A stretch of DNA of 64,000 nucleotides from a virus (Duplodnaviria; Caudoviricetes): positions 18,726 to 82,725 of IMG/VR virus record IMGVR_UViG_3300030060_002561. The stretch is one strand, 5' to 3'. Position numbers and translations under genes: made by a program. The notes under the pieces are model-generated. The model had not been told where the DNA came from. It did no database searches and worked only from the letters and a program-made list of their open reading frames with translations. Positions 10,902 through 56,161 of this stretch are shown here, one piece after another. The stretch's first letter is position 1, and each line of letters opens with the position of its first letter.

Positions 10902-11213
10902 TCAACTATAGTTAACGGTGACTGCAACAGTAGCACCTGACGCAGTTACATCTACTAGTATTCCATCTGATAGCAAAGCCCCATGAAAGTCATGCTCTAA
11001 GTTCGTTACTGCGTTTGGTAGGTATATTCTTGCTATCTCGTCAGCACTAACCTTCGTTGTGTCGTGACTGTCATAGATGTTAACTGTCGCAGTAGAACCA
11101 CCATCAGAACTGATATGAATACTGTTTAATCTAACCTTCTGTGGAGACTTACCACCAACTACAACAACGTTGTCTGGACTAACTAACAGTTTGCTAGTTG
11201 CTACTGTGGTCAT
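10902..11213 (-). CDS. Small beta-rich structural protein
   Basis: 103 aa, V/T/S-rich, downstream of the capsid genes. Confidence 0.5.
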   Translation of the reverse strand: MTTVATSKLLVSPDNVVVVGGKSPQKVRLNSIHISSDGGSTATVNIYDSHDTTKVSADEIARIYLPNAVTNLEHDFHGALLSDGILVDVTASGATVAVTVNYS

Positions 11214-11737: not shown

Positions 11738-11758
11738 ATTCTCACCTAGTAATAGAGG

Positions 11759-11800
11759 GTAGCGACCCCCTTCCTGATGTTCTAGGAAGAGGGCCACTAC
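11759..11800 (-). terminator. 17-bp stem-loop after the capsid/decoration genes (terminator or mRNA stabiliser)
   Basis: Minus strand GTAGTGGCCCTCTTCCT-agaacatc-AGGAAGGGGGTCGCTAC pairs fully only with G-U wobbles on the minus-strand transcript. Confidence 0.6.
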
Positions 11801-37979: not shown

Positions 37980-38015
37980 CAAAGTGCTACTACCATATGG
38001 TTTGTAATTACTTTG
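37980..38015. promoter_or_regulatory. Palindromic element, copy 3
   Basis: CAAAGT-gctact-ACCATATGGT-ttgtaatt-ACTTTG. Confidence 0.7.
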
Positions 38016-38108
38016 CTATCGGAAAATTCCTCAAGTTGGCCCACAGTGGGGAGGTCGGTGTTCTGACCCCCCCTCTGGGGTTATGTGGTTCCTCGGTACT
38101 CGGTTCGC

Positions 38109-38708
38109 CTACTTAGAGGACTTCTTGGCCTTCTTCTTAGGTTTCTCCGGCCTATCCGCGAGCGGGATTTGGGTGAAGGCGACTGTCCAAGACCAATCCT
38201 CGCTCTCTGGCTCGTAGGTGCCATCCCAACAGCGACCATATGCATCCCCGGTCCTAGGTTCTGCATTGTGACCCCTAAACTGAGCATTCAGAGCGTTTCT
38301 GATTGCCGTTTCATCTCTCTGGGAGAATTGTGAGCCACTAATGAACCATCCACCATCGGAACGGCCCGAAGCAGTCTCAACAATCTTCACGGAGACATTA
38401 TTCTCCCAAGACCGGGTTCTCTCTGCCTTGATATCGGTAATAATTGCCTCTCGGCTCACTATCATCTCGGCAGTTAGACCAACTGGTATCTTCACGGTGA
38501 CGAAGGGTGAGTCTGGAAGGTCTTCAAAGACCTCCTTGATTGATGTACTTAGCCTACCTCGCCTTGTTGACATCTTGTCTCCCTTGTCCAACCACTTGTG
38601 TACGACCTTCAACTCTGCTTTCTGCTCTTTGTTAAGGTCTGGGTGGTCTTTCTCCCAATCTTCCACTTTCTTTCTTGTTTCTTTCCATTCTTCATCGCTT
38701 ATTGCCAT
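38109..38708 (-). CDS. Hypothetical protein (probable paralog of 39259-39729)
   Basis: 199 aa with a GGTGAT RBS and TATATA at 38732-38737. Confidence 0.65.
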   Translation of the reverse strand: MAISDEEWKETRKKVEDWEKDHPDLNKEQKAELKVVHKWLDKGDKMSTRRGRLSTSIKEVFEDLPDSPFVTVKIPVGLTAEMIVSREAIITDIKAERTRSWENNVSVKIVETASGRSDGGWFISGSQFSQRDETAIRNALNAQFRGHNAEPRTGDAYGRCWDGTYEPESEDWSWTVAFTQIPLADRPEKPKKKAKKSSK

Positions 38709-38747
38709 GTATCACCTAATACCGACATGGGTATATAGGGTAATGAA

Positions 38748-38782
38748 CAAAAGTAACAACCATATGGTTTGTACATACTTTG
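38748..38782. promoter_or_regulatory. Palindromic element, copy 4
   Basis: CAAAAGT-aaca-ACCATATGGT-ttgtacat-ACTTTG, about 10 bp from a TATATA box. Confidence 0.7.
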
Positions 38783-38805
38783 TTCGGTAAACTACCTCGA
38801 TTTGG

Positions 38806-38836
38806 TGAGGGGGGGATGGAGGTATTCCCCCCCTCA
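38806..38836. terminator. Perfect 11-bp hairpin downstream of 38847-39107
   Basis: TGAGGGGGGGA-tggaggtat-TCCCCCCCTCA. Confidence 0.55.
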
Positions 38837-38846
38837 GTATGCGAGG

Positions 38847-39107
38847 CTAGGTTTCCACTATCCTCTCTATGATTGTCCATACTCCGGTGGTAATTTCGTG
38901 CTGGATTCTCTGGGCCTCAAAATAGTCCTTGCTGTTTTTACCAGTCCCGGACAATTTATGATATGCTCTGAATAATCTGTTGTTCGATATAGCATTCATT
39001 TCTCTGAGATGTTTCTTTGCATCTTCATGGTTCAGAAAGACCTCTATTCCATAATGCGTTCTCTTTTCGGGCTTTGTTTTGCATACTTCGTATATCACTA
39101 ATGACAT
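38847..39107 (-). CDS. Hypothetical protein
   Basis: 86 aa; starts about 38 nt from palindrome copy 5. Confidence 0.55.
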   Translation of the reverse strand: MSLVIYEVCKTKPEKRTHYGIEVFLNHEDAKKHLREMNAISNNRLFRAYHKLSGTGKNSKDYFEAQRIQHEITTGVWTIIERIVET

Positions 39108-39144
39108 AGTATCCCCTGACCATCTGGGTACATAGGGTACAGTT

Positions 39145-39175
39145 CAAAGTGTGCAACCATATGGTAGTCACTTTG
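39145..39175. promoter_or_regulatory. Palindromic element, copy 5 (between divergent genes)
   Basis: CAAAGT-gtgca-ACCATATGGT-agtc-ACTTTG. Confidence 0.7.
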
Positions 39176-39258
39176 CTCGACTCGCCTTATGTATCCGAAG
39201 GGCCAAAAGTAATTGTTCAGAGGGTAAAGAACCCCACAACAAAGAAAAGGTGAATAAA

Positions 39259-39729
39259 ATGACGGCAATGGATAATTGGACAGAATTTAGTAAAACGATG
39301 AATGACTTTGCAAACAAAGGCACGATGGATGAAGTCGATGCTGAGTATGTGAAGAGACAGATAGCGAAGGGAACGGACAACCCAGAAAGGCAAAGCCGAA
39401 TCGCTACTGCTGTTAGGGAAACCGTGAGAGATTACGATGATAGCCCTGTCAACAGTAGAGGTTTCTCTCTGCCCGCTGTGGCACAGGCTGTTGTAGACCT
39501 AGCAATCGCGGCTGTTGTAGCAATGGGTCAAGCATTCGACTCGGCTCCATCAGTACGCGCACTATGGATTCCACACGGCAAGTGCAAGTTCGACCACTTT
39601 GAGAATGGTGAGCATTGGGCCACCTATCACAGTGCGAAGATACAGGAGGCCGCCGAGGAAATGTACAAGGCGGGCGAATGGGATGGCTCTGAGAAGAGTC
39701 TTCTAGCCACAATCGGAGGTTCTCTCTGA
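39259..39729 (+). CDS. Hypothetical protein (probable paralog of 38109-38708)
   Basis: Start reassigned to ATG 39259, which has an AGGTGA RBS. Confidence 0.65.
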   Translation: MTAMDNWTEFSKTMNDFANKGTMDEVDAEYVKRQIAKGTDNPERQSRIATAVRETVRDYDDSPVNSRGFSLPAVAQAVVDLAIAAVVAMGQAFDSAPSVRALWIPHGKCKFDHFENGEHWATYHSAKIQEAAEEMYKAGEWDGSEKSLLATIGGSL

Positions 39730-39764
39730 TTGTGGAACGTTCGGACCCTTCTGAACACTCCTTC

Positions 39765-39796
39765 GGGGGGGCAGGTGTTAATTCACCTGCTCTCCC
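39765..39796 (+). terminator. Hairpin after 39259-39729
   Basis: GGGGGGGCAGGTG-ttaatt-CACCTGCTCTCCC, with G-U pairs on the plus strand. Confidence 0.5.
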
Positions 39797-39822
39797 ACCC
39801 CCAGATAGTCAGGTCGAGGCGA

Positions 39823-39858
39823 CAAAGTGCCTAACCATATGGTTGTATGGCAGATTTC
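39823..39858. promoter_or_regulatory. Palindromic element, copy 6 (right arm degenerate)
   Basis: CAAAGT-gccta-ACCATATGGT-tgtatggcagatttc. Confidence 0.55.
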
Positions 39859-40136
39859 TAGGTAGAATCGGATTACCGGGATATGGGCGGGAGTATATAT
39901 ATCGAGGGGGCCAAGAGGGAATTGTCCGATGACCTAGGGATTCCGACATCGAATGCGCTCACCTAACCAGAGCAATATATCAAAGTCGAAACCTACCTGT
40001 TAGATTTTTCAACTAACAAAAAAGAATAGGTTCACACAAGGTCCATCTAGTTCTTACATATAGTATAATACTAATACAATATATACAGTACAAGTATCTA
40101 TACTACAATACTCAATATTAGTTAGATTTCGTATTA

Positions 40137-40319
<183 letters not shown>

Positions 40320-41642
40320 AAGTGGTGCGTTCCCATCGAATACGCACGATTCAGGATTATCACAACCGATAATTATCTGATAATTATAAATTCGATACAT
40401 TACATTCGATACACCAAACCTTGACGGTTGATTGAAAGGTGACATGAGGCATCGTTGAACAGTTTAGCGACTTAGTAAACCTCGTCTTTGTCATATGGGT
40501 AATACCATGCTTGTCCCATGAATGAAGTAGTGGGACATAGATGAGTAAATCACAAGGGTCGAAACGGGGAGTTCTACGGAACATCTTCGGATGAAACAAG
40601 TAAAGATACAGGGGTTGACTCCACTCTTTCCTATGACCACTTAGCCGTGGCTCTGAACGGGTGTAGTAACTGACTTGGTAGGGATGGCTTCTCTACCAAC
40701 TGTGCGCTATAAAGGAGAAATCCAACAGTAGTCGTCAGCGTCATAAAACAAATCGCTCAACAAGCCCGTTAGTTGAGAAGCCCATTTTCCCTGCGTAGCA
40801 ACGGCATAGCACGTTCTTGTTCTCTCCCCATAACTATTCACACCTTTTCTTGGGGCTTTACCCAAGACCGGGGGGATATCCACATTGCCGCGATATCCTC
40901 CCACCATCTCAAAATAATCGAAATGATTATCATACTCCTACCCCCGATTAGTAGGACGTAGTTTGCTAAGTAATACGGAGAAAAACACATTTTCTACTGT
41001 CGTGTTCTTTGTTTAGCGGGTTCTCTCCCCAAAGAGTTCCTCTCCGTCCTACACCTACTTTTACTACGGGGGCTAGTGATTATATTCAGTCCTATACTGA
41101 ATGTCAGACATACAAGGGCGATGTTGAATTGGGCCACCTTTAACATGATTGCACTACTTAGTAGACTTTCGTGGGTGTTCGTACCTGTTGTTTTACTCGC
41201 AAGAGCGAGTTTGTATGCAATAACAAACAACGAAACTTTCACACTCAAGACTCACTTATGTGGGTTTAACGCTTGGACGCAACTCTCTGTTCAGAGAATG
41301 AGATAGAGAACATATTGGGAAATGTGGTTGCTTCTGAGTTAGAGCGAGGTTTAGCAGTAATGCAGAGAATATCTTCTGAGATAAGTTATGAACGAAGGAT
41401 ACCAGAGTCGGAAGAGAAAGGGTATTAGAAATGTAATTTTATCAAAACATAATTTCTAAGTAAAATTTGAGTAAAATTTTGTTTAGTAGGGTGGTATCAT
41501 GCCACTCAACTTCATGTTACCGAGACTAACTAACGGTACGCTCTCAGGCTATCAGCGTAGAGATTCCTACGCACTAGTCTTAGGCATATGCTTGATGACT
41601 CTGCCCCTCGCTACAATATTACACTCCAAAGGAGAACTAAAA

Positions 41643-43091
41643 ATGACAATAGTAGGAACAAAAGAACAAGAAGAAATATGGAATGAAATGGAGAATGGCG
41701 ATAGTCACATGGTCGTTAAGGCTGGTGCAGGAACGGGTAAAACGTTCACTATCGTAGAAGGCGCGAAGAGGATTCGTGGTGGCAAGAAGGGATTCTTGGC
41801 ATTCAACAAATCAATTGCGACTGAACTTGGTAAGAAACTACCACTTGATTGTAAGGCTATGACCTTTCACAGTCTTGGGTTGTCTTCTATCAAGAGGTAC
41901 AGGAAAGATGCAAAAGTGGACACCAAGAAAGTCTACAACATCATTCGGAACATCTTCGGCCCAGAGTACAAATCAGCACCTGCTCTCAACAAACTAGTCA
42001 GCCTGTTGAAGTCTTCACTAGCAGATTGGGAATCCATCTCGGATATCAGAGCAATCATCGACCAGTATAACATTGAGTTCGATGGCATCAAGGATGAGAA
42101 GATGGCAATCGACATGCTTCCAACAATAAGGAACATGTGTGAGGATATCTCTGTGGTTGATTTCGATGACATGATATGGCTACCTGTGGTTCTAGAACTA
42201 CCAGTAGAACACTATGATACTGTCTTCGTTGATGAAGCACAGGACTTCAATGAGTCTCAGAGACAACTAATACTACGCGCATGTAATGGTGGTAGGATGA
42301 TAGTTGTCGGAGATACCAAGCAAGCAATCTATGGTTTTCGTGGAGCAGACTCTGCTAGTATGGATATATTCAGGGAGGAACTGGTGAACAAGTCTACTCG
42401 CGGAGTCAAGGACTACACTCTCAGTATCACATGGAGATGTCCAAAGTCTATCGTAGCAGAAGCCAACCGATTCTTCTCAGATTACACATGCAGGGAAGAT
42501 GCACCAGAAGGTGAGGTGAATGTCAATGCGGCATTCGTGCCAAAGGGCGGTGACTTGGTTCTATGCAGAGTAAACGCACCTCTGGTTTCAGAGTGCTTTT
42601 CTCTGATTACCCAAGGCATACCTGCCTACGTTCTAGGTAGAGACATCGGCTATTCACTACAGGTTCTAGTCAAGAAGGTGACAGATGATTCGTCAATGAC
42701 TCTTGAGAGATTCTTACCTGCACTAGCAGACCATGTTGACAAGAGAATCAACGCTCTGAAACTACAGGAGAAGGACAAGCAGATTCAGTCCTTGACTGAT
42801 AAGCACGATTGCATTCTGGCTCTTGCTGGAAATGTGAACACAGTCGGTGGTCTTCTAGATAACATCAAGGAGATATTCGGTGAGCAAGGAAAGAAAGCAG
42901 GAGTTGTCTTCTCCACTATCCACAAGGCCAAGGGTCTTGAAGCAGAGAACGTATGGATTCTGGAACCACAACTCATGCCACATCCTATGGCAACTACTCC
43001 TGCTGATAGACAACAGGAAACCAATCTGTGTTACGTTGCTATCACTAGAGCAATGAAGACTCTCAACTACGTTGGTGATAGAGTTGGTTGA
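41643..43091 (+). CDS. UvrD/Rep-like superfamily 1 helicase
   Basis: AGAGTGKT, VDEAQD, VGDTKQAIYGFRGA, STIHKAKGLE and YVAITRA. Start reassigned to ATG 41643 (GGAG RBS). Confidence 0.92.
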   Translation: MTIVGTKEQEEIWNEMENGDSHMVVKAGAGTGKTFTIVEGAKRIRGGKKGFLAFNKSIATELGKKLPLDCKAMTFHSLGLSSIKRYRKDAKVDTKKVYNIIRNIFGPEYKSAPALNKLVSLLKSSLADWESISDIRAIIDQYNIEFDGIKDEKMAIDMLPTIRNMCEDISVVDFDDMIWLPVVLELPVEHYDTVFVDEAQDFNESQRQLILRACNGGRMIVVGDTKQAIYGFRGADSASMDIFREELVNKSTRGVKDYTLSITWRCPKSIVAEANRFFSDYTCREDAPEGEVNVNAAFVPKGGDLVLCRVNAPLVSECFSLITQGIPAYVLGRDIGYSLQVLVKKVTDDSSMTLERFLPALADHVDKRINALKLQEKDKQIQSLTDKHDCILALAGNVNTVGGLLDNIKEIFGEQGKKAGVVFSTIHKAKGLEAENVWILEPQLMPHPMATTPADRQQETNLCYVAITRAMKTLNYVGDRVG

Positions 43092-44722: not shown

Positions 44723-46039
44723 ATGGATGTAGTATATACTAGAGATGACATCGAAGACGGTGCTACAGAGAAGATAGAAGCCAAGCGTGACTTAGGTGAA
44801 GGTAGATGGGACAGAGTTCTCAAGCAAAAGATGGTTGAGTTGTCTGTTGCCGATAACTATGAAGACGCTAAGAAAGAATGGAAAGCAACTGGTAATGTAT
44901 GGTGGTCATCTAGGTACAACGTTACTGACCCCTATGGGAGAAACGAGGATGCCCCAGATTGGGTTAACAACTCTACCAATGGATGTAATCAATGTCTATG
45001 TGGACACAACATCGTGTATCACTTTGAGATAGCGAATACTGAGAATGGTAACGTAGAGTGTGTTGGTTCAGACCACATCACTTCTTACTTGATTCTGAGA
45101 GAGATATCAGAGTCTACTGGTGTTGACATGGATGCAATTACCGAGAGAATGATTCAGGATTGGATTAACGTTCGTGTGAAGTCTATGATTCAAGATGCAT
45201 GGTGGGCAGAGAACGGAGAAGAGTTTGAAGAGATGTTCGATGAGGTCAAGGAAGCAGACTTGAGAATCAATGTTAGATACCATCCTACCAAGCACTATTG
45301 GGATAGTACACTCAGACAACACAAGCGCGTTAGATATCTTAGGAAGAGAGCAGAGGGTTCTGGCCCTGCGCGAAGAAGAGAAATGGCTTCGATTGTATGG
45401 AGATGGAACCATCCAGAGAATGCTAGGAATCAACAGACTACCAGAGGATATCCTAACGAGAGACTATGGTTGGACATGAACAGGTTCTCTTCTCTGATTG
45501 AGGAACATCTTGAGGACATAGAGAAGAAGGACATGACCAAGCAACAGAGAATCGAATGGTTGGAGAACTTCGATGCTGAGTTTGATGCCAAGATGGAAGC
45601 ACAGGGAATGGTGGAAACAAGATTCACTACTAACTGTAAGCGATTTGGTATCCCACTATTCAGTTGGCAAGATGCTCCGACTGCTTGGGACAAGTCCTTC
45701 TTGAAGAAGATGTACTATGCTATCCGAGATAGTGGCGATGAACCTAAACTCGGAAAGTCAGACATCGACAGATTGGAGAAGACATTGGATATGATGTCCA
45801 ATCTAGCAACCAAAGAGCAGAAGGATGTGATTAGTAACTATAGGTCACAACTAGTCGAGGCTAGAAGAACCGACTACGTTCCTAAGTTTCCATACCAGAT
45901 GAAACCGGACATGACATCCGATGAAGCAGAACAACAAATCTCCACTTTGAGGGACATCTTGGATAGCGTTAGGGCTATGCAAGAGATAAAACTTGAAAGG
46001 GAGATAGAGAGTCGTCAACTTACTGACGGAGGCGAATGA
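44723..46039 (+). CDS. Hypothetical protein with CLCGH...VGSDH metal-binding motif
   Basis: 438 aa with a GGAGGT RBS. Confidence 0.6.
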   Translation: MDVVYTRDDIEDGATEKIEAKRDLGEGRWDRVLKQKMVELSVADNYEDAKKEWKATGNVWWSSRYNVTDPYGRNEDAPDWVNNSTNGCNQCLCGHNIVYHFEIANTENGNVECVGSDHITSYLILREISESTGVDMDAITERMIQDWINVRVKSMIQDAWWAENGEEFEEMFDEVKEADLRINVRYHPTKHYWDSTLRQHKRVRYLRKRAEGSGPARRREMASIVWRWNHPENARNQQTTRGYPNERLWLDMNRFSSLIEEHLEDIEKKDMTKQQRIEWLENFDAEFDAKMEAQGMVETRFTTNCKRFGIPLFSWQDAPTAWDKSFLKKMYYAIRDSGDEPKLGKSDIDRLEKTLDMMSNLATKEQKDVISNYRSQLVEARRTDYVPKFPYQMKPDMTSDEAEQQISTLRDILDSVRAMQEIKLEREIESRQLTDGGE

Positions 46040-46309: not shown

Positions 46310-46516
46310 ATGGTAAAATTGACTATAATGAATGAAACCGGACATACCGAGATGGTTGCATCAGCCGCCGAGGTCATCGAACAGATAACGGACCACCCAA
46401 CACACTGGGTATTCGTTGACGGTGAGATGGTCACGCGCGAAACTGTTGATACCGTCAATTGGGAGAGCGTAGAGAACGTCACGCTTGCACCTGCGGTTGT
46501 CGGTGGAATTCGCTGA
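46310..46516 (+). CDS. Ubiquitin-like (ThiS/SAMP beta-grasp) protein ending GG-IR
   Basis: 68 aa: MVKLTIMN...WVFVDGEMV...VENVTLAPAVVGG-IR, resembling the ThiS/MoaD pattern V.VNG...D.V.I.P.V.GG. Strong GGAGGT RBS. Confidence 0.7.
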   Translation: MVKLTIMNETGHTEMVASAAEVIEQITDHPTHWVFVDGEMVTRETVDTVNWESVENVTLAPAVVGGIR

Positions 46517-46694
46517 ACAAGGTAGGTTAAGCCCTACAATCAAGAGTAATCTTGGTCGGAAAAACGCAAGCCGCTTCTGGGTATTATATTCATTAGCGGT
46601 AATTACTAAGTAGTGCATTTCGCACCCTTAGTCTCCCAGCAACGAGTGGTTGCCGTGTAGGTGGAATGCCTACTACTTAAGGGGGTTTTAGATA

Positions 46695-48587
46695 ATGCAA
46701 AATAAATTAGAAATAGAACAACAAATGATGAGCGATTTGATTGTACCTACAAAATATGCTAGGTATGATTGGGAGTTGGGAAGGAGAGAGACACTCGATG
46801 AAATAATCACAAGGAACATGAACATGCACCTTGACAAATTCAAAGGGAACGAAACTGTCTGTACCAAGATTGTAAAGGTATACAATGACTATGTGAAGAC
46901 GTTGAAGGTATCACCTTCTATGCGTTCCTACCAATTTGCAGGAGATGCTATTCTACGTTCACCTAACAGAATCTACAACTGTTCATTCATGAACATTACA
47001 GATATTAGGTGCTTCGGGGAAGCAATGTTCCTACTACTAGGTGGGACTGGTGTAGGCTATTCAGTGCAGAAGCATCACATAGCACAACTACCACAAGTCA
47101 TGAAGCCTAACCCAGATAGAACCTACAGACATCTGATAGGTGATTCACAAGAAGGATGGGCAGAAGCAATCAACGTACTCTTTGAGTCTTATACTGGTAA
47201 GAGAAGCACTACACCTCGCTTCGACTACTCAGATATCAGACCGAAGGGAGCGTTACTCAAGACTAGTGGTGGCAAGGCTCCCGGCCCGACACCATTGAGA
47301 AACTGCCTCACTATCATAGAAGGCATGTTGATTGACAAGGAGAATTTCACACAACTCAGACCAATAGAAGTACATGACATGCTATGCAGAATTGCAGAGG
47401 CCGTACTATCTGGTGGTATCAGAAGGTCAGCGATGATTTCACTATTCAGTGCAGATGACAGAGAGATGTTGACTGCGAAGACGGTGACTACATACGAGAG
47501 CCATCCATATAGGAAACATGCTAACAACTCTGCGGTTCTAGTTAGGAACAGAGTAACCAAGAAATTCTATGATTCCTTGTGGGAGATAATACAGGCAAAT
47601 GGTGGACATGAGCCGGGTTTCTACTTCACTAACGATAAGGAATGGGGGACCAATCCTTGTGCAGAAATTGGATTACGGGACATGCAGTTCTGTAACTTGA
47701 CTACCTGTAACGTATCAGATGTAGAATCACAAGAGGAATTGAATGCTAGAGTAGAAGCGGCGGCGTTCCTAGGAACATTGCAAGCGACCTACACAGACTT
47801 TCACTTCCTACGTCAAGGATGGAAGAAGACTACTGAGAAGGATGCACTACTTGGTGTATCTATGACTGGTATTGCCAATGGTAAGTTGGATGACTTAGAC
47901 TTGAATGAAGCAGTCGATGTCGTCAAGATGGTGAACAGGGATTGGGCAGAGAAACTAGGCATCAATCCTGCCGCCAGACTTACCTGTGTCAAACCAGAAG
48001 GAACTGCTAGTCTGGTATTCGGAACATCATCGGGGATTCACCCTTGGTGGTCTGACTACTTCATTAGGACTATCAGATATAACAAAGAGGAACCTATCGC
48101 CCAATATCTAATGGAGAACATTCCAGATTTGATAGAAGACGATAGATGGGAAGAAGGCAACATAGTAGTCTTCGTTCCTCAGAAAGCACCAGAAGGTGCA
48201 GTCACTCGCTCGGAGTCTGCTATAGACTTCTTAGAGAGAGTGAAGCATGTGACAGAGAATTGGGTGAAGCCCGGTCACATAGACGGAATGAATACTCACA
48301 ACGTTTCAGCAACAGTTAACGTTCGTGAGAATGAATGGGATTTGGTGAGAGATTGGATGTGGATAAACAGAGATTCCTACAATGGGCTTTCTCTACTACC
48401 TTTCAGTTTCGATGTTGAGGATGGTATAGAAATGCAGATGCCCAACACGGCATGTGACAAGGAGACTTTTGAGAAGTACCTACCACTACTAAAGAAGTTA
48501 GACACCTCGCAGATAATGGAGGATGACGACAACACTCAACTTCAAGGTGAACTCGCATGTTCTGGGGGAACGTGTGAGATACTGTGA
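46695..48587 (+). CDS. nrdJ: Class II (AdoCbl-dependent) ribonucleotide reductase
   Basis: YNCSF, GGIRRSA, TNPCAEI, KPEGT and the C-terminal ACSGGTCEI of monomeric RTPR type. Confidence 0.92.
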   Translation: MQNKLEIEQQMMSDLIVPTKYARYDWELGRRETLDEIITRNMNMHLDKFKGNETVCTKIVKVYNDYVKTLKVSPSMRSYQFAGDAILRSPNRIYNCSFMNITDIRCFGEAMFLLLGGTGVGYSVQKHHIAQLPQVMKPNPDRTYRHLIGDSQEGWAEAINVLFESYTGKRSTTPRFDYSDIRPKGALLKTSGGKAPGPTPLRNCLTIIEGMLIDKENFTQLRPIEVHDMLCRIAEAVLSGGIRRSAMISLFSADDREMLTAKTVTTYESHPYRKHANNSAVLVRNRVTKKFYDSLWEIIQANGGHEPGFYFTNDKEWGTNPCAEIGLRDMQFCNLTTCNVSDVESQEELNARVEAAAFLGTLQATYTDFHFLRQGWKKTTEKDALLGVSMTGIANGKLDDLDLNEAVDVVKMVNRDWAEKLGINPAARLTCVKPEGTASLVFGTSSGIHPWWSDYFIRTIRYNKEEPIAQYLMENIPDLIEDDRWEEGNIVVFVPQKAPEGAVTRSESAIDFLERVKHVTENWVKPGHIDGMNTHNVSATVNVRENEWDLVRDWMWINRDSYNGLSLLPFSFDVEDGIEMQMPNTACDKETFEKYLPLLKKLDTSQIMEDDDNTQLQGELACSGGTCEIL

Positions 48588-48913
48588 GATTCCAAATCAC
48601 CCGTAAGTTAGGTCATTACTTTGACGTAAACGAGATTGATTTCATCAGAGATGAGATAATCCGTATATGTCCAGACAATGCGAGTAAGGCTTACGTTGAC
48701 CAAGCGATAGAAGTTGCCAAGAGTGGTAACATGTCTAAAGCAAGGTTGAACAGAATACTAGGACATCAATTACATCGTAGTTGTAAGAAGATGTTCGACA
48801 CCTATCCGGGTGAAGCAATAAAGGAATTATACAATAGAAAACAATACTACATTAAAAATTATGGAGAGAATGAATATGAAAATAAAATTAGGAATACCCT
48901 CGATTGGAGATAG
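48584..48913 (+). CDS. Hypothetical protein
   Basis: 109 aa with a GTGA overlap with the RNR stop. Confidence 0.5.
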   Translation: MRFQITRKLGHYFDVNEIDFIRDEIIRICPDNASKAYVDQAIEVAKSGNMSKARLNRILGHQLHRSCKKMFDTYPGEAIKELYNRKQYYIKNYGENEYENKIRNTLDWR

Positions 48914-50552
48914 AAGAGCAGGTCGCGGCACAGAATACATGCACACATCGTTCTTGTTCAACACGAACAACAAGTTACTGATGAAGCAGTTGTATGGCTC
49001 TAACCGCAACAGAATATTTTTGTCACATGACGGTTCATGGTTTGAAGAAAGAATAAAGAAACTTGACATATCTATGTCAGTCTTTGAAGAAGACATGCCA
49101 GTAATATATGTTAAAGGAAGGAAAGAGTATCTTCGCCAAGATAATGAGAAAGACTGGTACTACTATTCACCTAATTCTTTCACAAAGAGCATGAACAAGT
49201 TTGGTGAGAGAGAGATTAACGTACCGAGAGTCCTTGGTATAGGTCAGCACCACAGTGAAGACCCACTATTGTTTGAAGTGGCGAAGACTGTTGAGCAATA
49301 TCTGTTTGGTCCGACTAAGAAGCAGTACAATCTGCTTGGTGCTGATGATAAGAACTACAGGCACTATCTGGGTTGGAAGTTTCCAGATGGAGAAGTCACA
49401 CTTACTATTCAGAGGAAGAAGTCTTCGTTCTACGTTGACCACACTAGGATGTTAAAGAAGGATGCAATCTATGCAGTAGCCAAGATTCTGATGAGAGCAG
49501 TCTATTGCAGAAGTGCAGAGGTCTTGGAAGAATACATCATCAAGGTCACAGAGACACCACACAATGTTCTCTATGCTATTGAGAACAGGAGTCCTTACTT
49601 CTTCTATGAGATGGGCAGGAAGCAGGAAGTGATGCTCAATACCAAGAGCATTGGTTTGAAAGAAGTAGCCATTGAGATATCAGAAGATATCTGGGCAGGA
49701 ATAACCACGAAGGAATGGAACCAATTCTTGAATGTGTATAGGCATGGTGCTAAGAGAAGCAAGAGATGGCTAGGTATTACTCCTAGAGATTTGTGGATTG
49801 AGTTATTCACAGAAGACAAGAGTAAGGATTCGGAAGGTAAGTATCTATTCCCATCAGAGCCTACATCTGGGCAAGAGAAGATGATGCTCGCATGGCTAAA
49901 GCAGAACAGGAAACATGCTATGGTAGAAGACAGAGCAACTCAACTACTGAGAGGACTAGATGCAGAGTACCCACAACTAACCTATGTCAACTGGCCCGGT
50001 ATCGAAGACCAAGCAATTCATGTCAAGGGAAGAGTAAGAGATTGGGTCATTACTGGTAGAGGTGGTATGAAGGTAGGTCATCAGAACGTTTCGACATACT
50101 GTATAAATTCTAACGAGAAGAACATGTCAAGTTCAAGATTGAAGTTCCGAGGTAGGGAGATTAGCCATAGCATTTGCATAGATAACCTACACAACAACTC
50201 AAGCGTAGGTGACCAGATTGCGGCTAGGGCAATGGTGCTTCTGAATGACGAGTCTGCTTCTCACAGAGTATACACGATTCACGGATATGTCAGAGATAGA
50301 GCAACCGATGAGGTATTGGTTAATCAGCCTAGGATACCTGCTAACGAGTTGATGTCTATTCACTATAGCAAGCAGAAGAAGCGAAGGCAAACCAAGGAAG
50401 CGAATGAGGCTCAGAAGAAGGCCAAAGCAGAGAAGGAAGCCGCAGAACAACTTCAACGGGACTTAGAGGAAAGGAGACTACAACGCGAACGTGAAGATGC
50501 TAGGAGAGCCAGAAGGAGAGAAAGGCGAGCGAGAAGGAGGGCGGTACAATGA
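48861..50552 (+). CDS. Large protein with putative C-terminal E2 (UBC)-like domain
   Basis: HQNV (res. 407-410) ... SICID (C439) followed by the helix GDQIAARAMVLLND, echoing the E2 pattern HPNV...ICLD. Ends in a basic coiled-coil tail. Confidence 0.4.
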   Translation: MERMNMKIKLGIPSIGDRRAGRGTEYMHTSFLFNTNNKLLMKQLYGSNRNRIFLSHDGSWFEERIKKLDISMSVFEEDMPVIYVKGRKEYLRQDNEKDWYYYSPNSFTKSMNKFGEREINVPRVLGIGQHHSEDPLLFEVAKTVEQYLFGPTKKQYNLLGADDKNYRHYLGWKFPDGEVTLTIQRKKSSFYVDHTRMLKKDAIYAVAKILMRAVYCRSAEVLEEYIIKVTETPHNVLYAIENRSPYFFYEMGRKQEVMLNTKSIGLKEVAIEISEDIWAGITTKEWNQFLNVYRHGAKRSKRWLGITPRDLWIELFTEDKSKDSEGKYLFPSEPTSGQEKMMLAWLKQNRKHAMVEDRATQLLRGLDAEYPQLTYVNWPGIEDQAIHVKGRVRDWVITGRGGMKVGHQNVSTYCINSNEKNMSSSRLKFRGREISHSICIDNLHNNSSVGDQIAARAMVLLNDESASHRVYTIHGYVRDRATDEVLVNQPRIPANELMSIHYSKQKKRRQTKEANEAQKKAKAEKEAAEQLQRDLEERRLQREREDARRARRRERRARRRAVQ

Positions 50553-51523
50553 AGTGTGAACTGTGTAAGTCTCGCAACCTAGTATTCAACGAAGCACTTG
50601 GCGAGAATGTATGCTCAGAGTGTGGGTATGTCAACGTGACTGCTCCCTTTGAGAAGCACGTTCTCGTCAAGTGGGATGATAGTGGTCAACCTAACAAGAG
50701 TCCAGACAAAGGACATCTAGGTTCTTTCATCGCTAAGAGTGAGGCGTTTGTAAACAAGAAGTTTCACCTTTGGCAACAGAATGTAAGAACAGAGACTTGG
50801 GCGGCACACAAAAGAAAAGCCGCAACGAAAGAAGTTGATACCAAGATGATGATGTATCTATCTGAGTATGGTGCGTCTAAGGATTTGAAGGAAAGCGCGA
50901 AGGCGTATTATCTGGCTATGTTCAAAGACGACTATCTCAGAGGATACTCAAACGAACGTAAAGCGGCAGGTGTGACTTTCTTTGTATTGAAAGAGGCAGG
51001 TATCATAACTAGCCTAGACAAACATGCTAGGATTACTAGAGTGGACAAGAGATATCTCTCTAAGATTGCTAAGAAAATAGCAAAATATGCAAGGAAGTCA
51101 TACGTGTTTGCTAAAGAAACACCACAAGAATCAGTAGATTCTTTGCTTGGAAACATGAAAAACGTAACAGAATCGCAGAGAAATGCGGCTTTTTTGTTCA
51201 TAGAATATGTTTCTAGGGTCTATGAAGACCTAAATATGCGACTATCTAACAATAGAATAGGAGCAGGTGTTTGGATTGCTACTAAAATGATAAGCGAACC
51301 AATTACACAAACAGACATAGTGAAGTATTGGCTATGTTCTGATTACGGCATTAGGAATAATGCTAAGGAAATGTGCGAATTATTGTCAATAGACAAAGCA
51401 AGTTTATCTTGTTATGACATAGAAGACGTAGTTAAAGGAATAAGAGTGAGGAATGAAAATGAAAATGGAAAGAAAAACAGTGAAAGAAACAAGAACGAGG
51501 TGCTTCTGAATGAGGCATCGTAA
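50549..51523 (+). CDS. tfb: Transcription factor B (TFIIB/TFB) homolog
   Basis: N-terminal Zn ribbon CELC...GENVCSECGYV and two cyclin-like repeats (LRGYSNERKAAG; ITQTDIVK). Confidence 0.8.
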   Translation: MKCELCKSRNLVFNEALGENVCSECGYVNVTAPFEKHVLVKWDDSGQPNKSPDKGHLGSFIAKSEAFVNKKFHLWQQNVRTETWAAHKRKAATKEVDTKMMMYLSEYGASKDLKESAKAYYLAMFKDDYLRGYSNERKAAGVTFFVLKEAGIITSLDKHARITRVDKRYLSKIAKKIAKYARKSYVFAKETPQESVDSLLGNMKNVTESQRNAAFLFIEYVSRVYEDLNMRLSNNRIGAGVWIATKMISEPITQTDIVKYWLCSDYGIRNNAKEMCELLSIDKASLSCYDIEDVVKGIRVRNENENGKKNSERNKNEVLLNEAS

Positions 51524-52094
51524 GGTACTATTGATTGGGGCAGGTGGAATAGGTAGTTATCTAATTCCAATACTGAACAGACTTGGTGTGTATCAGGTTA
51601 CTGCCTTTGACGATGATAAGGTTGAGCAGAAGAATCTGCGGTATCAGAACTTTAGCGCAGATGACCTAGGGGAACTCAAGGTCTATTGCTTCTCTTCTGA
51701 TATGGGTGGTATGTATGAAGCACAACCATATCTTGTTCTAACAGAGAAGCAGTTGAAGGGATATGACTTGGTTATCTGTTGTGCAGATAATCTAGCAGTA
51801 AGAAGAATGCTATATCGTCAAGGCCACGGCGATGATGCTAAAGTCAAGTGGCTTGATTTGAGAGCGCAAGGTCGCAATGCGGCTTTGATTTCTTACAAGG
51901 TGGATAAGAACTTCCAAGATACATTGTTGAATGGGCCAGAGGGTTCTTTCTCCTGCCAAGGCGGAGATTGGGATGGTACTGGTAAGGAAGTAAACTGTAT
52001 GCACATGCTGATTGCAGGATATGCCGCACAATGGATTCAGAAGTGGTTCAATGACCACGATGATGTTGTTGACAAGGTGGTGCTAAATGTATGA
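51510..52094 (+). CDS. ThiF/E1-like adenylyltransferase
   Basis: LLIGAGGIGS, DDDKVEQKNLRYQNF and CCADNLAVR motifs; candidate catalytic Cys in GSFSCQ. Confidence 0.88.
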   Translation: MRHRKVLLIGAGGIGSYLIPILNRLGVYQVTAFDDDKVEQKNLRYQNFSADDLGELKVYCFSSDMGGMYEAQPYLVLTEKQLKGYDLVICCADNLAVRRMLYRQGHGDDAKVKWLDLRAQGRNAALISYKVDKNFQDTLLNGPEGSFSCQGGDWDGTGKEVNCMHMLIAGYAAQWIQKWFNDHDDVVDKVVLNV

Positions 52095-52333
52095 AGTTCG
52101 CAAGTGATTATTGGACATGCAAGTGTGGTGACCCTATGGTATGGACACTAGACATCGGAACACCAATTGCATTGGTACAGAACCAACCACGGATACCCGT
52201 ACTGTATGTTTATGGGTGTCAGTCTTGTGGCTACCAAAAGAATGTACGATTGATGATAATCAATCCTGCTACGCAGAATGTAGTAGATGAGATATCAATG
52301 ATAGAAGACACTATGAAAACAGGAGATGAATGA
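52091..52333 (+). CDS. Small zinc-ribbon protein
   Basis: CKCG...CQSCG. Confidence 0.55.
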   Translation: MKFASDYWTCKCGDPMVWTLDIGTPIALVQNQPRIPVLYVYGCQSCGYQKNVRLMIINPATQNVVDEISMIEDTMKTGDE

Positions 52334-52573
52334 ATGAGTGATGCAGAGAAAATAGAGGATTTAACAGAGGAAGACATTGATAATATTGTGGATATACTAT
52401 CGACAGATGGATACTATCCACAAGCGCAGATTGTGAAAGTTACATGTCCCGCATGTGGTGAAGCGTTTCTAGGAACGAAGAGACATGCAGGTGGTTTCAT
52501 TGCAGGTCATAAAGCGTATCACGAATTTGAGAATCAGATGGATGTCATGATTAAAGAAATGGGCGGAGCATAA
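52334..52573 (+). CDS. Small C2H2-like zinc-finger protein
   Basis: CPACG...HKAYH; TAATG overlap with the JAB gene. Confidence 0.6.
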   Translation: MSDAEKIEDLTEEDIDNIVDILSTDGYYPQAQIVKVTCPACGEAFLGTKRHAGGFIAGHKAYHEFENQMDVMIKEMGGA

Positions 52574-53055
52574 TGGAGATTAAGAATGAGAATTGGAAGA
52601 GAGATATTGTTGATGCGTTTGTATCCTGTATATCACATACCACAGGGCCAGTACCATACAACAATCCAAACAACGAATTAGAGGCTTTTCTCTCAGTTAT
52701 CTGGGAGAAGTCGATGAAGGCTTTCGACAAACCTAGAGAAGTACAGGTAGTCGTTGACGCGAAGAACACAGTCTTCATCAATGTTGGAACACCTAGTTTC
52801 GTTTCGTTTGATGGTGCAGACGAAGAAGAATTGGAAGGTATGAAATTGCCATTCAAGTGTTGGATTCACACCCATCCATTTGGTCAAGCGTACTTTAGTG
52901 GAACTGATTGGAAGACGCTGAACACATGGAAGCCAATGCTCGCCAATGCAATAGTATTGGGTGATAACGAGTATTGGGCATATGACGTAAAGAGGGAGAT
53001 AGTAAAGCAAGTAAAGTATGGACTGCTTCAAAGTCCGAAAATAGAAGAGGAATAA
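52573..53055 (+). CDS. JAB/MPN+ (JAMM) metalloprotease
   Basis: E56 plus an exact H-x-H-x7-S-x2-D motif, HTHPFGQAYFSGTD (99-112). Confidence 0.85.
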   Translation: MEIKNENWKRDIVDAFVSCISHTTGPVPYNNPNNELEAFLSVIWEKSMKAFDKPREVQVVVDAKNTVFINVGTPSFVSFDGADEEELEGMKLPFKCWIHTHPFGQAYFSGTDWKTLNTWKPMLANAIVLGDNEYWAYDVKREIVKQVKYGLLQSPKIEEE

Positions 53056-54412: not shown

Positions 54413-54642
54413 GTAATGATAAGATGAAGATAGTGGCTAGGTTTCCTAGAAGCGCAACAACGGAGTTGGTGGTGCAAGAAGGAGAGTATTGGAACATCGA
54501 GGTAATTGACGTTAGATGGTTCAATGAAGGAAAGCCCACAAGGAAGGGCATAAGAATAAACAAAGACGAGTTAGGGAATCTCTTGAAAATTCTCAATAAA
54601 ATTGGTGATAAAAATGTGGATAAGAATGGCGAGGATGCTTGA
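54409..54642 (+). CDS. PC4-like ssDNA-binding protein
   Basis: IDVRWF...KPTRKGIRI matches the PC4/YdbC signature. Confidence 0.75.
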   Translation: MSNDKMKIVARFPRSATTELVVQEGEYWNIEVIDVRWFNEGKPTRKGIRINKDELGNLLKILNKIGDKNVDKNGEDA

Positions 54643-56161
54643 AGTAATAGAGAATGTAAATAGCACTAATGCTAAGGTCGAAGCAATAGAGAGAAATTTC
54701 AGTTCTTTCAACCCCGGTTGGGCCGGGATGATGACTGTACTCTTGGGTGATTATGGGCCTAGCAATATAGGAGAGAAGAGAGCAATCTCTTGGTTGGCTT
54801 CTATACTAGGAGTGCATGAAGAAGAGATAAAGTCGTATGCGGAGTCATATGGTGACTTGGGTGAAGGTGTGTACATGTTCGGTGGTGTTTCAGAAACGCC
54901 TTCTGACATCACCATAACAACCGTATTGAGATTGTTCAATATGGATTGTTCTTCTATAAATGGTCAAGCGTATTCCATGTACGAAGAAATTCTCAGACAG
55001 ATGGATTCTTTGGAGTTGAAGTGGTTTGTTAGATATTGGTTGAAGACACCTAGGAATGGTGTTAGTACATCAACAGTAACGAAAGCCATGGCACAACGAC
55101 ATGGTTCTAGGTTCGTTTCAAGGTTGAGAGACTTCGATATGATTACGTTATTGTCATATGCGGAAGCAAATCCAGATGATTGGGAAAAGCATCTACCAGA
55201 AGTAAGTCACATTGGTAGGTACATCAAGCCCATGCTTGCTAAGAAGTTAGAAGACAACCAACCACTACCAGAAGAATACGTGATTGATATCAAGTATGAT
55301 GGTAACAGGTATCAGATACACCATTCTCCAGATACTACTATGATATTCAACAGAGCAGGTAAGTTAGTCACAGAACAGTATCCAGATGTAGTCAGTATAT
55401 TGGAAGACTGTAATGATACCTTCATTGTTGACGGAGAGATTTATCCAGTTAACCATGATGGCTCTCCCGCAGAACACAAGAAACTAGGAACAAGAGTACA
55501 CTCTAAAGATAAGGCTCAGGCCGTAGCAGATTGCCCAGTAAAACTGGTCGTCTTCGACATAATGTATGATGGATTTGAGTCTCTTCTTGATATGCCATAT
55601 AAAACAAGACTAGAGCAACTGGAGAAGTTTGTTGTTCTAAGGCCATACAATGCAAGGCTTCTATCGCTAGACCGTGTTGCTTCCTACAACTACGCAATCA
55701 ATGAAGGATACGAAGGTATCATGATTAAGGATTTGAATGCGCCATACGAATCTAAGAGAAGTAAGGCTTTGTTGAAGCACAAGCCACCAAGGATAGATTT
55801 CGATGTCGTGATATTATCAGCCAAGTATGGTGGGGGGAAGAGAAGTGATGTCTTTGGCACATATGAGATGGGAGTGGTTAGTGATGATGGTTATACATCC
55901 GTGGGTTCTGTTGGTTCAGGTCTTAGTGATGAAGACCTTTTGTCATTGACTACACAACTAAAGAGGATAGTCGAAAGATATGACAACAAGACAGACACGT
56001 TTCACGTACTACCGAGGATTGTACTACAGGTGACTGCTGATTTAGTATCAAGAGATGCCAATGGAAACTACGGTCTGAGGTTCCCTAGAGTACAGAGAAT
56101 CCGACATGACAAGTATCCTGCTGATTGCAATACCTTAGATGACGTAAGAGGTGAGGCATGA
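54602..56161 (+). CDS. lig: ATP-dependent DNA ligase (replication module)
   Basis: IKPMLAKK, DIKYDGNR, IVDGEI, VFDIM, EGIMIK, VGSGLSDE and LRFPRVQRIRHDK. Confidence 0.93.
   Translation: MVIKMWIRMARMLEVIENVNSTNAKVEAIERNFSSFNPGWAGMMTVLLGDYGPSNIGEKRAISWLASILGVHEEEIKSYAESYGDLGEGVYMFGGVSETPSDITITTVLRLFNMDCSSINGQAYSMYEEILRQMDSLELKWFVRYWLKTPRNGVSTSTVTKAMAQRHGSRFVSRLRDFDMITLLSYAEANPDDWEKHLPEVSHIGRYIKPMLAKKLEDNQPLPEEYVIDIKYDGNRYQIHHSPDTTMIFNRAGKLVTEQYPDVVSILEDCNDTFIVDGEIYPVNHDGSPAEHKKLGTRVHSKDKAQAVADCPVKLVVFDIMYDGFESLLDMPYKTRLEQLEKFVVLRPYNARLLSLDRVASYNYAINEGYEGIMIKDLNAPYESKRSKALLKHKPPRIDFDVVILSAKYGGGKRSDVFGTYEMGVVSDDGYTSVGSVGSGLSDEDLLSLTTQLKRIVERYDNKTDTFHVLPRIVLQVTADLVSRDANGNYGLRFPRVQRIRHDKYPADCNTLDDVRGEA

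Follow-up and report, generated by a model that had tools for sequence, protein, structure and literature searches.

A candidate ubiquitin-like protein modification kit in a tailed virus of probable magrovirus type, with counterparts in operons of its probable Poseidoniales hosts

Does a tailed virus whose genome holds, scattered between other genes, a small protein with a diglycine end, a ThiF-family enzyme, a protein with an E2-like motif and a JAMM protease run a protein-tagging pathway of its own, or are these genes no more than neighbours? The question is raised by IMG/VR record IMGVR_UViG_3300030060_002561, an ocean virus (Duplodnaviria; Caudoviricetes), of which a stretch of 64,000 nt (record positions 18,726-82,725; hereafter the window) was analysed. 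A first-pass annotation had read the dispersed genes, together with two zinc-finger genes, as a single ubiquitin-like conjugation system, and had proposed co-occurrence across related viruses as a check. The positions that it gave for the ORFs of the ubiquitin-like protein (Ubl), E1, JAMM, the 563-aa protein and the zinc fingers, all on the + strand, are exact (Table 1). We conclude, with moderate confidence, that the virus encodes a complete Ubl protein-modification kit and that a homologous four-gene operon exists in its probable hosts, the Poseidoniales.

Table 1. Features of the viral locus (positions within the window)
Feature	Position	Strand	Basis
Ubl (68 aa, ending VVGG-IR)	46310-46516	+	ORF
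RNR, interleaved with kit genes	46695-48587	+	ORF
563-aa protein	48861-50552	+	ORF
E2-like (UBC-like) domain, residues ~349-493 of the 563-aa protein	49905-50339	+	predicted fold
TFB, interleaved with kit genes	50549-51523	+	ORF
E1-like ThiF-family enzyme (194 aa)	51510-52094	+	ORF, Pfam ThiF
80-aa zinc-finger protein	52091-52333	+	ORF
79-aa zinc-finger protein, ending MGG+1 residue	52334-52573	+	ORF
JAMM/MPN+ metalloprotease (160 aa)	52573-53055	+	ORF, conserved motif

Magroviruses are tailed viruses of Marine Group II archaea with genomes of about 65-100 kb and archaeal-type replication genes, and they count among the most abundant archaeal viruses in the surface ocean. The window also encodes TFB, RFC, an ATP-dependent ligase, RNR and tailed-virus structural genes. 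The nearest major capsid proteins are those of haloarchaeal tailed viruses, the relatives of the virus are marine contigs of 90-100 kb, and RNR is assigned to magrovirus group B (according to PMC5434244). Gene content and relatives suggest a tailed archaeal virus of the magrovirus type, and its host probably belongs to the Poseidoniales (Marine Group II archaea).

The 68-aa protein had been described as beta-grasp-like with a capped GG end, and on both points the predicted fold and the alignment agree. Its AF2 model (pLDDT 88.4) is a beta-grasp, and fold searches with this model match ubiquitin, MoaD and a bacterial Ubl, with modest scores in both searches; no curated model of the Ub/ThiS/MoaD type in Pfam, NCBIfam, PADLOC or PHROGs matches the protein. 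The conserved end is PA[IV]VGG, followed in this virus by the two-residue cap IR, and in 106 of 114 homologues the C-terminus consists of GG plus 0-2 variable, non-conserved residues. Because G65 and G66 are invariant (43 aligned sequences) and such ends are rare in the window (only 8 of the 394 ORFs of at least 40 aa), the GG end is not there by chance.

The ThiF/E1 assignment is borne out by Pfam, in which PF00899 (ThiF) matches the 194-aa protein with an E value of 6.3e-17 and scores 61.9 bits where the cut-off is 28.1. An alignment of 16 sequences shows no variation in the motif GAGGIGS or at D93, N94 and R98; Cys149, within S-x-S-C-Q, is also invariant, and its spacing suggests that it may correspond to the crossover-loop Cys of ThiF/MoeB. 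The protein contains no CxxC zinc motifs, no rhodanese domain and no UFD or other E2-recruiting domain. Cap2 is the best PDB match of its profile (6.6e-10), in an alignment confined to the nucleotide-binding half of the viral enzyme, followed by MccB (8.8e-9), Uba4 and MoeB. PADLOC (2023) matches only the ThiF domain, and its matches are all of the Cap2 type (best 8.7e-10). Membership of the described equivalog families was rejected: NCBIfam scores for the MoeB and ThiF equivalogs fall far under the cut-offs, the best NCBIfam match, to the PRTRC ThiF equivalog, reaches 54 bits versus a cut-off of 144.75, and the model of UbaA, the SAMP E1, gives 37.2 bits versus 450. Judged by its sequence, the protein is a minimal E1-like adenylating enzyme of the small ThiF/MoeB type.

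Membership of this enzyme among the MoeB/ThiF activators of sulfur carriers was also considered and found no support, given its low equivalog scores and the lack of CxxC pairs, a rhodanese domain and pathway genes. Searches that did find matches in control genomes detected no Rhodanese, MoaE, ATP_bind_3 (TtuA/NcsA-type) or ThiG anywhere in the 82.7-kb record. This agrees with the absence of thiamine, molybdopterin and tRNA-thiolation genes noted earlier for the window.

The JAMM protein had been credited with an intact E...HxHx7SxxD zinc-site motif; the motif is present, and none of its five residues (E56, H99, H101, S109 and D112) varies across 17 aligned sequences. The protein has a conserved acidic C-terminus, GEEE, and it misses the Prok-JAB threshold of Pfam (20.8 bits versus a cut-off of 25). 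Its profile matches AMSH-LP, AMSH, Sst2 and an archaeal Rpn11-like protein (6fjv, 1.1e-3) across the motif, and the best match (E 7.6e-5) aligns the zinc-site residues to the active-site segment of AMSH-LP. Of 151 genomes sampled from the host order, 89 carry this JAMM type.

The 563-aa protein consists of N-terminal beta-rich domains, a C-terminal Cys domain and a charged helix confined to this lineage. It has no match in Pfam, the PDB or the Atlas. Its AF2 model has a pLDDT of 83.4. For the C-terminal domain, 32 of the 50 structure matches listed are E2 chains, spanning nearly the whole UBC core. Cys439 (codon 50175-50177) is invariant in 44 sequences of the family as well as in a 16-sequence alignment of viruses plus hosts, and its signature reads I-C-I-D ... 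G-D ... D ... T. In the AF2 model, Cys439 lies 10 residues ahead of helix 449-460. The HPN motif is a hallmark sought in E2/UBC enzymes; the family alignment holds no conserved HPN-like triplet. None of the 44 members matches Pfam families of the UQ_con or Prok-E2 type at E <= 1, and a PDB sequence search with the E2-like family gave no matches. Earlier, an E2-like motif had been attributed to this protein without being specified. The stretch HQNVSTYC, tried as such a motif, is not conserved in the family and was discarded; the part of the claim that stands is the UBC-like predicted fold with its invariant Cys439. The C-terminal domain is probably a carrier (E2-like) enzyme.

The four genes travel together in related viruses. 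All 21 IMG/VR loci picked via ThiF hold the Ubl and a 563-aa homologue, and 20 hold JAMM, the single miss being a contig that ends before the JAMM position. Among 75 loci picked via the Ubl, each with at least 8 kb downstream, the 563-aa homologue and ThiF occur in 75 and JAMM in 74. In the proposed co-occurrence check, each of the four parts is therefore kept in 74-75 of the 75 loci. Within the viral group, this is shared synteny and not independent evidence.

The strongest evidence comes from outside the virus group, from host operons and fused ORFs. In 12 MAG loci with this ThiF type (L024-L032, L042, L044 and L086), JAMM adjoins in 11 and a Ubl lies directly upstream in 5; in the same 5 the Ubl is preceded by an ORF that resembles the 563-aa family in its Cys motif (E 1.5e-5 to 9e-4), giving the compact order E2-like–Ubl–E1–JAMM. 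In L032 and L024 the surrounding genes are cellular, namely enolase, aminotransferase and GDP-mannose dehydratase. A further 20 host loci were chosen by JAMM match and searched for neighbours within 6 kb: ThiF adjoins JAMM or shares its ORF in all 20, a Ubl is nearby in 6 and an E2-like gene in 2. E1-JAMM forms a single ORF in L180 and L181, and so does Ubl-Ubl-E1 in L192 and L196. The latter precursors must be cut after GG to free a Ubl, which is the role that the first-pass annotation had given to the JAMM protease. Identity between the viral proteins and those of the hosts is only about 30-40%; the viral Ubl is homologous to the host Ubl that adjoins a host E1-JAMM ORF (hhalign 98.4%, E 5.5e-15), and an HMM built from host Ubls only finds it with E 2.8e-14. 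The idea that the dispersed Ubl, E1 and JAMM genes form one system is supported by these comparisons, as their diverged homologues adjoin or fuse in Poseidoniales-type genomes. It now rests on host operons and fusions in addition to the GG cap.

Based on these observations, we suggest that the kit most likely tags proteins; we infer conjugation in preference to sulfur transfer. The JAMM protease would trim the 68-aa Ubl back to its conserved GG by taking off the 0-2 residues that follow, a step strongly implied by the host Ubl-Ubl-E1 ORFs. The minimal E1 would then adenylate the exposed Gly and probably form a thioester on Cys149. The Ubl may subsequently pass to Cys439 of the UBC-like domain of the 563-aa protein and from there to viral or host lysines, which is the weakest step of the scheme. 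The same JAMM protease probably reverses the tagging. Control of the interleaved TFB or RNR by the kit, suggested in the first-pass annotation, found no support.

The rarity of E2-like genes and Ubls in the 20 further host loci suggests that an E2 may not be needed for the enzymes to work, much as in sampylation in archaea. The lack of zinc motifs and of an E2-recruiting domain in the E1 also speaks against the preferred scheme, as do the modest scores of the Ubl in the fold searches. It is conceivable, if rather unlikely, that the viral kit is itself an E2-independent system of the SAMP/Urm1 type, in which the E1 alone activates the Ubl for direct modification, for service as a thiocarboxylate sulfur carrier, or for both, JAMM both matures and removes the Ubl, and the 563-aa protein is either a target or a conserved neighbour with no part in the system. 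A small MoeB/ThiF-type E1 fits this reading, yet the viral one has no rhodanese domain and its score against the UbaA model is far under the cut-off. JAMM-dependent maturation of sulfur carriers is known from QbsE/QbsD and CysO/Mec, which counts for this alternative, whereas the record lacks rhodanese, MoaE, ThiG and TtuA/NcsA-type genes. In 18 of the 20 host loci, E1-JAMM has no detectable E2-like gene nearby, but in viral loci the Ubl always has the Cys-domain protein with it (75 of 75), and in 5 host operons the Cys motif occurs in the ORF just before the Ubl.

A further proposal, which we consider improbable, is that the main task of the kit is to oppose or replace the homologous host system, for counter-defence or for takeover. 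Viral proteins tagged with host Ubl might be freed of it by the viral JAMM; alternatively, a host pathway might be displaced or diverted by the viral Ubl, E1 and E2. That pathway might itself be antiviral, as are the bacterial Bil operons. Diverged homologues, about 30-40% identical to the viral proteins, are indeed widespread in the host order, as the distribution of the JAMM type indicates, and the parts of the host operon are those of BilABCD, which is anti-phage according to PMC10557695. On the other hand, the housekeeping genes around the L032 and L024 operons give no sign of a defence role, PADLOC recognises only the ThiF domain, and JAMM alone would suffice for such a purpose, yet all four parts are kept in nearly every viral locus. 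This proposal concerns biological role rather than mechanism and is compatible with the tagging kit that we prefer.

The two zinc-finger genes lie between E1 and JAMM, as had been claimed, but do not behave as core parts of the kit: the 80-aa protein is strain-specific, occurring outside the window only in L001, a near-identical relative (1 of 21 loci), and the 79-aa protein, possibly an accessory or a second substrate, is found in 32 of 75 related loci only. That the ThiF enzyme acts on another substrate, such as the C-terminus of the 79-aa protein, by MccB- or RiPP-like chemistry, with the 68-aa protein unrelated, is very improbable: the gene position, the [ML]GG+1 end in 119 of 120 close homologues listed and the place of MccB among the best PDB matches speak for it, but the protein is patchily distributed, 18 of the 32 loci lack GG plus up to 3 residues at its end, host operons have no homologue of it, and the host Ubl of the 68-aa type adjoins the E1 or shares its ORF.

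Returning to the kit of Ubl, E1, E2-like protein and JAMM, we offer only tentatively the broader idea that magroviruses run a complete, self-encoded E1-E2-Ubl-deubiquitinase cascade, built around a new E2 family, which tags specific host or viral proteins in infection. Such a cascade could serve takeover or counter an antiviral host homologue, an archaeal counterpart of Bil. If this is true, few prokaryotic viruses would be comparable in carrying the whole cascade.

No published description of this kit was found in the literature searched, although several known systems resemble it in part. CBASS Cap2/Cap3 consists of an E1-E2 fusion plus a JAMM protease. Among solved structures, the viral E1 profile matches Cap2 best, and a JAMM partner is present here too; unlike in CBASS, there is no CD-NTase, E1 and E2 are unfused, and the substrate is a free Ubl. 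Sampylation is not known to need an E2. Like the viral kit, the sampylation system of Haloferax volcanii (SAMP1-3, UbaA and HvJAMM1) combines archaeal GG-ending beta-grasp modifiers with a small MoeB/ThiF-type E1 and a JAMM protease that removes the modifier (as described in PMC4443979 and PMC4895103). In contrast, the viral Ubl is capped, its E1 fits the UbaA model poorly, and the kit is accompanied by a Cys-domain protein whose predicted fold is UBC-like. The ubiquitin operons of Caldiarchaeum and Asgard archaea also contain an archaeal set of Ubl, E1, E2 and Rpn11-like JAMM, but theirs, according to PMC6043591 and PMC4327156, comprises true ubiquitin, canonical UBC E2s and RING E3s by sequence; in the viral kit none of these three is recognisable by sequence, and no RING was detected.

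The comparison with BilABCD is instructive at the level of architecture only. The Bil operons are bacterial, whereas the present system is archaeal and viral, with its viral genes dispersed over 6.7 kb amid replication and transcription genes. The E1 here is of the 194-aa minimal ThiF type, in which a separate CYS domain is not evident, the E2-like domain lies at the end of a 360-560-aa protein and matches no known E2 by sequence, and no defence role is indicated. Both systems nevertheless are made up of a Ubl, an E1, an E2 and a JAMM protease, and in both the conserved Gly of the Ubl is followed by a short variable tail that JAMM must remove, as PMC10557695 reports for the type II BilA Ubls, whose short, non-conserved tail after Gly is pre-processed by the BilC JAMM protease.

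The view that the viral Ubl, E1 and JAMM protease work as one system is, on comparative sequence grounds, well supported. Each ORF named in the first-pass annotation was found where it had been placed (see table).

Features of the viral window and of related loci
Feature	Sequence	Position	Strand	Remark
975-aa protein	window	5226-8153	-	tail gene region
195-aa protein	window	11210-11797	-	structural arm
864-aa protein	window	14880-17474	-	structural arm
Skew sign change	window	~38000-42000		junction of the two arms
438-aa protein	window	44723-46039	+	upstream of Ubl
Ubl, 68 aa	window	46310-46516	+	end VVGG-IR
RNR	window	46695-48587	+	
563-aa protein	window	48861-50552	+	candidate E2-like domain ~349-493
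TFB	window	50549-51523	+	
E1 (ThiF), 194 aa	window	51510-52094	+	
Zinc ribbon, 80 aa	window	52091-52333		between E1 and JAMM
Zinc finger, 79 aa	window	52334-52573	+	between E1 and JAMM
JAMM protease, 160 aa	window	52573-53055	+	
DNA ligase	window	54602-56161	+	replication arm
NrdJ, first copy	L026	1054-4842	+	flanks host operon
NrdJ, second copy	L026	9119-12928	-	flanks host operon
Region with 195-aa ThiF	L037	5833-9140		
Virus-type JAMM match	G106:C1	176194-176682		
Host-type JAMM match	G106:C1	197241-197471		

The 194-aa protein is a member of the ThiF/E1 family, as had been proposed (Pfam E 6.3e-17, over the cut-off). Its Gly-rich loop, D93-N94...R98 and Cys149 in S-x-S-C-Q are invariant among 16 aligned sequences, and it bears no CxxC zinc motifs, no additional domains and no rhodanese domain. 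All NCBIfam equivalogs, including PRTRC ThiF, ThiF, MoeB and the SAMP E1 UbaA, scored far under cut-off, and the viral E1 therefore lies outside these subfamilies.

The 68-aa protein gave no family match in Pfam, NCBIfam, PADLOC or PHROGs. Its predicted structure is a confident beta-grasp (pLDDT 88.4), which agrees with its earlier designation as a Ubl. Among 114 homologues the C-terminus is GG in 6, GG plus one residue in 34, GG plus two residues in 66 and GG with a longer tail in 4, while the 4 without any GG appear truncated or frameshifted. In the alignment G65 and G66 are invariant and the residues beyond them vary freely.

The 160-aa protein scores under the Pfam Prok-JAB cut-off, and PADLOC and PHROGs returned no match for it, for the Ubl or for the 563-aa protein. 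The JAMM motif is nevertheless intact, as first described: E56, H99, H101, S109 and D112 are all invariant, and the profile aligns the motif segment with AMSH-LP, AMSH and Sst2 as well as with an Rpn11-like protein of archaea. The viral JAMM proteins share a conserved acidic C-terminus, G-E-E-E, and the E2-like proteins of the host-type loci (ORFs in L032, L027 and L086) end in E/D runs; these acidic ends may represent a shared docking tail.

The expected co-occurrence of the four genes across related viruses was observed. The Ubl and a homologue of the 563-aa protein accompany all 21 loci found via ThiF, and JAMM accompanies 20, the sole miss being a contig that ends before that gene. Among 75 loci found via the Ubl and having at least 8 kb downstream, the 563-aa homologue and ThiF are present in 75/75 and JAMM in 74/75. 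Such co-occurrence reflects the shared synteny of related genomes and therefore, taken alone, proves little.

The gene two places upstream of the Ubl invariably encodes the 438-aa protein, with a conserved Cys/His cluster and also a W-R-W-N-H-P-x-N stretch. Family searches gave no match for this protein, and the ESM Atlas only unnamed viral clusters; it is possibly a further partner or target of the kit.

The decisive evidence was obtained from cellular genomes, which were scanned with the E1 profile. The scan yielded 12 MAG contigs with an E1 30-33% identical (L024-L032, L042, L044 and L086), labelled Poseidoniales, Poseidoniaceae, Thalassarchaeum or euryarchaeote. JAMM adjoins E1 in 11 of these loci, and the exception, L086, ends 77 bases past the E1 gene. 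In five loci the Ubl is directly upstream of E1, and the ORF preceding it matches the 563-aa family exactly at the Cys motif (E 1.5e-5 to 9e-4). The neighbouring genes are cellular in L032 (enolase, aminotransferase, GNATs, NrdJ) and in L024 (GDP-mannose dehydratase, a FadB-like gene). Homology between the viral and host Ubls spans their full length, the GG included (hhalign 98.4%, E 5.5e-15), and a host-only Ubl HMM scores the viral Ubl at E 2.8e-14. Of 151 genomes sampled from the likely host order, 89 carry the JAMM type.

Twenty further host loci were selected by JAMM match and their neighbours sought within 6 kb. E1 stands beside JAMM, or is fused with it in one ORF, in all 20; the Ubl was detected in six and an E2-like ORF in two. 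In the host loci L192 and L196, E1 follows a tandem pair of Ubl domains, both with a GG end, within a single ORF; in L180 and L181 a single ORF encodes E1 together with JAMM, and a capped Ubl gene, i.e. one with residues after the GG, is found just upstream. These single-ORF forms are strong evidence that Ubl, E1 and JAMM act together, and with the gene order in the host lineage they substantiate the earlier idea of one system. Release of the Ubl from Ubl-Ubl-E1 precursors would be possible only via cleavage after GG.

Two contigs of the host lineage deserve separate mention. In a host-order genome (G106:C1) a virus-type JAMM match (E 4.8e-58) and a host-type match, the latter in a 420-aa open frame, lie ~20 kb apart on the same contig, which could indicate either that a magrovirus-like element has integrated or that the bin is chimeric. 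In the host locus L026, near-identical inverted NrdJ genes flank the operon; the contig has many ambiguous bases and the pair is probably an assembly artefact.

The 563-aa protein is more difficult to classify. No sequence match, and no E2, was found in Pfam or in PDB sequence and profile searches; the ESM Atlas held nothing usable, and BFVD contained three viral homologues without names. Its model is confident (pLDDT 83.4), and fold searches with the whole model were uninformative: in a wide VIA search every match was a coiled coil aligned with the C-terminal helix 511-563. E2 chains do occur among the fold matches of its C-terminal domain. In the model this domain consists of one helix, four strands, a loop bearing the invariant Cys439 and then helices, an order which we take to be that of UBC. 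Invariance across both the viral and the host homologues is limited to G, I-C-x-D, D, D and T, and the family alignment contains no HPN-like motif. As to the E2-like motif of the first-pass annotation, HQNVSTYC, the stretch that may have been meant, is not conserved.

The Cys-domain family comprises 262 clusters at E <= 1e-3, none of which carries an E2 annotation. The domain is almost always C-terminal, in proteins of 360-480 aa, and Pfam was empty for 14 of the 16 representatives examined (of 150 listed). No second copy was detected in the window at E < 0.1 among ORFs of at least 60 aa. One member of the family, P0346, has an N-terminal SAP (DNA-binding) domain; a SAP domain also occurs at the C-terminus of the 195-aa protein. 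The hint from the fold, the invariance of Cys439 and the place in the operon make an E2 role for the 563-aa protein, on balance, the likelier reading, and its family is a candidate new E2 family.

The lack of sulfur-pathway partner genes, noted at first for the window, extends to the whole virus record, in which no rhodanese, MoaE, ThiG or TtuA/NcsA-type genes were found; control genomes gave matches. As there are no such genes, no rhodanese domain on the E1, and a Cys-domain partner, protein tagging is favoured over sulfur transfer, and we consider an E2 step and protein conjugation probable. An E2-independent, SAMP-like mode is still a real rival, because most host loci show E1-JAMM with no E2-like gene nearby. 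Against it stand the presence of the Cys-domain partner and the same absence of sulfur-transfer genes from the record.

The two zinc fingers, earlier counted among the kit parts, do not appear to belong to it. The 80-aa zinc ribbon is confined to the window and one near-identical relative, and the 79-aa zinc finger, not found in host operons, was detected in 32 of the 75 related loci. Of 120 close homologues of the latter among the matches listed, 119 have a [ML]GG end followed by a single residue, which varies (Q 46, I 33, A 21, V 15, T 2, M 2). Distant orthologues differ, 18 of the 32 detected having no end in GG plus up to three residues; because of this and of the 43/75 loci without a detected gene, the idea of a second GG modifier was demoted to a lead. 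The protein could be a lineage-specific second substrate of JAMM or E1, or a tail mimic.

No tie was found for the suggested control of TFB and RNR by the kit. The viral RNR matches no ORF of the host loci, and a cellular NrdJ lies beside the operon only in L026, L031 and L032, mutually close host loci, without forming a pattern. A Methanoperedens contig (L037) was likewise set aside. Flanked there by SNF2 and UvrD helicase genes is a minimal ThiF of 195 aa, which matches the viral E1 profile at E 7e-30; the 712-aa ORF before it has a Cys-motif-like terminal stretch and the 166-aa ORF after it an exact GG end. These resemblances of the neighbouring ORFs did not reach significance, and no JAMM was detected.

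The virus record, 82.7 kb long and enclosing the 64-kb window, is 88% complete by CheckV estimate. Its minus-strand arm holds structural genes of a tailed virus (tail tube, SU10-type major capsid protein, prohead protease, portal, terminase), and its plus-strand arm archaeal-type replication and transcription genes (TFB, RFC, ATP-dependent DNA ligase, PC4-like protein, UvrD helicase, B12-dependent RNR). The nearest matches to the major capsid protein are those of haloarchaeal tailed viruses (24% identity, E 5e-20), the virus's close relatives, marine contigs in IMG/VR, reach ~100 kb, and RNR is given as a mark of group B magroviruses in an excerpt of PMC5434244. Based on these features of gene content, we read the virus as magrovirus-type, presumably infecting Marine Group II archaea.

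GC and AT skew both switch sign where the two arms meet and diverge. Besides the DNA ligase of the replication arm, the window encodes a ligase/nucleotidyltransferase domain of the ATP-dependent kind in the 864-aa protein (Pfam DNA_ligase_A_M, E 5.6e-29). The C-terminus of the 975-aa protein is exactly GG. In two marine metatranscriptome runs of one study there are contigs that match parts of the region at 95-99%; a claim of expression was dropped, contigs from RNA libraries being no proof of transcription.

Literature searches found no paper combining 'magroviruses' and 'ubiquitin', and nothing specific that links Ubl terms to archaeal viruses or to Poseidoniales. In the paper that founded the magroviruses, the main text contains no ubiquitin, ThiF, JAB or MoeB, and a magrovirus diversity paper contains no ubiquitin, JAB, adenylyltransferase or ThiF. 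An excerpt of PMC8276007 counts a MoeB/ThiF gene among the prevalent auxiliary genes of archaeal viruses and refers to ubiquitination. The genes may be listed in supplements of these papers.

An entire lineage of archaeal viruses abundant in the ocean retains the full kit as core genes, and the likely hosts widely carry a diverged copy. The four proteins are small enough to be reconstituted and could reveal Ubl transfer from a minimal E1 to an E2. The kit also offers a route into the conflict of an uncultured virus-host pair: does the viral copy serve takeover, or is it an answer to a host system?

Prokaryotic ubiquitin-like conjugation has been proven real only recently, in Bil, CBASS and sampylation, and in those cases it is cellular. 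The best match for the viral E1 profile is the E1 domain of Cap2 of CBASS, followed by MccB, Uba4 and MoeB. The capped GG end of the viral Ubl matches the bacterial Type II Bil systems, where, according to an excerpt of PMC10557695, the BilA Ubls show the same signature of GG plus a variable tail, which is taken off by the JAMM partner BilC.
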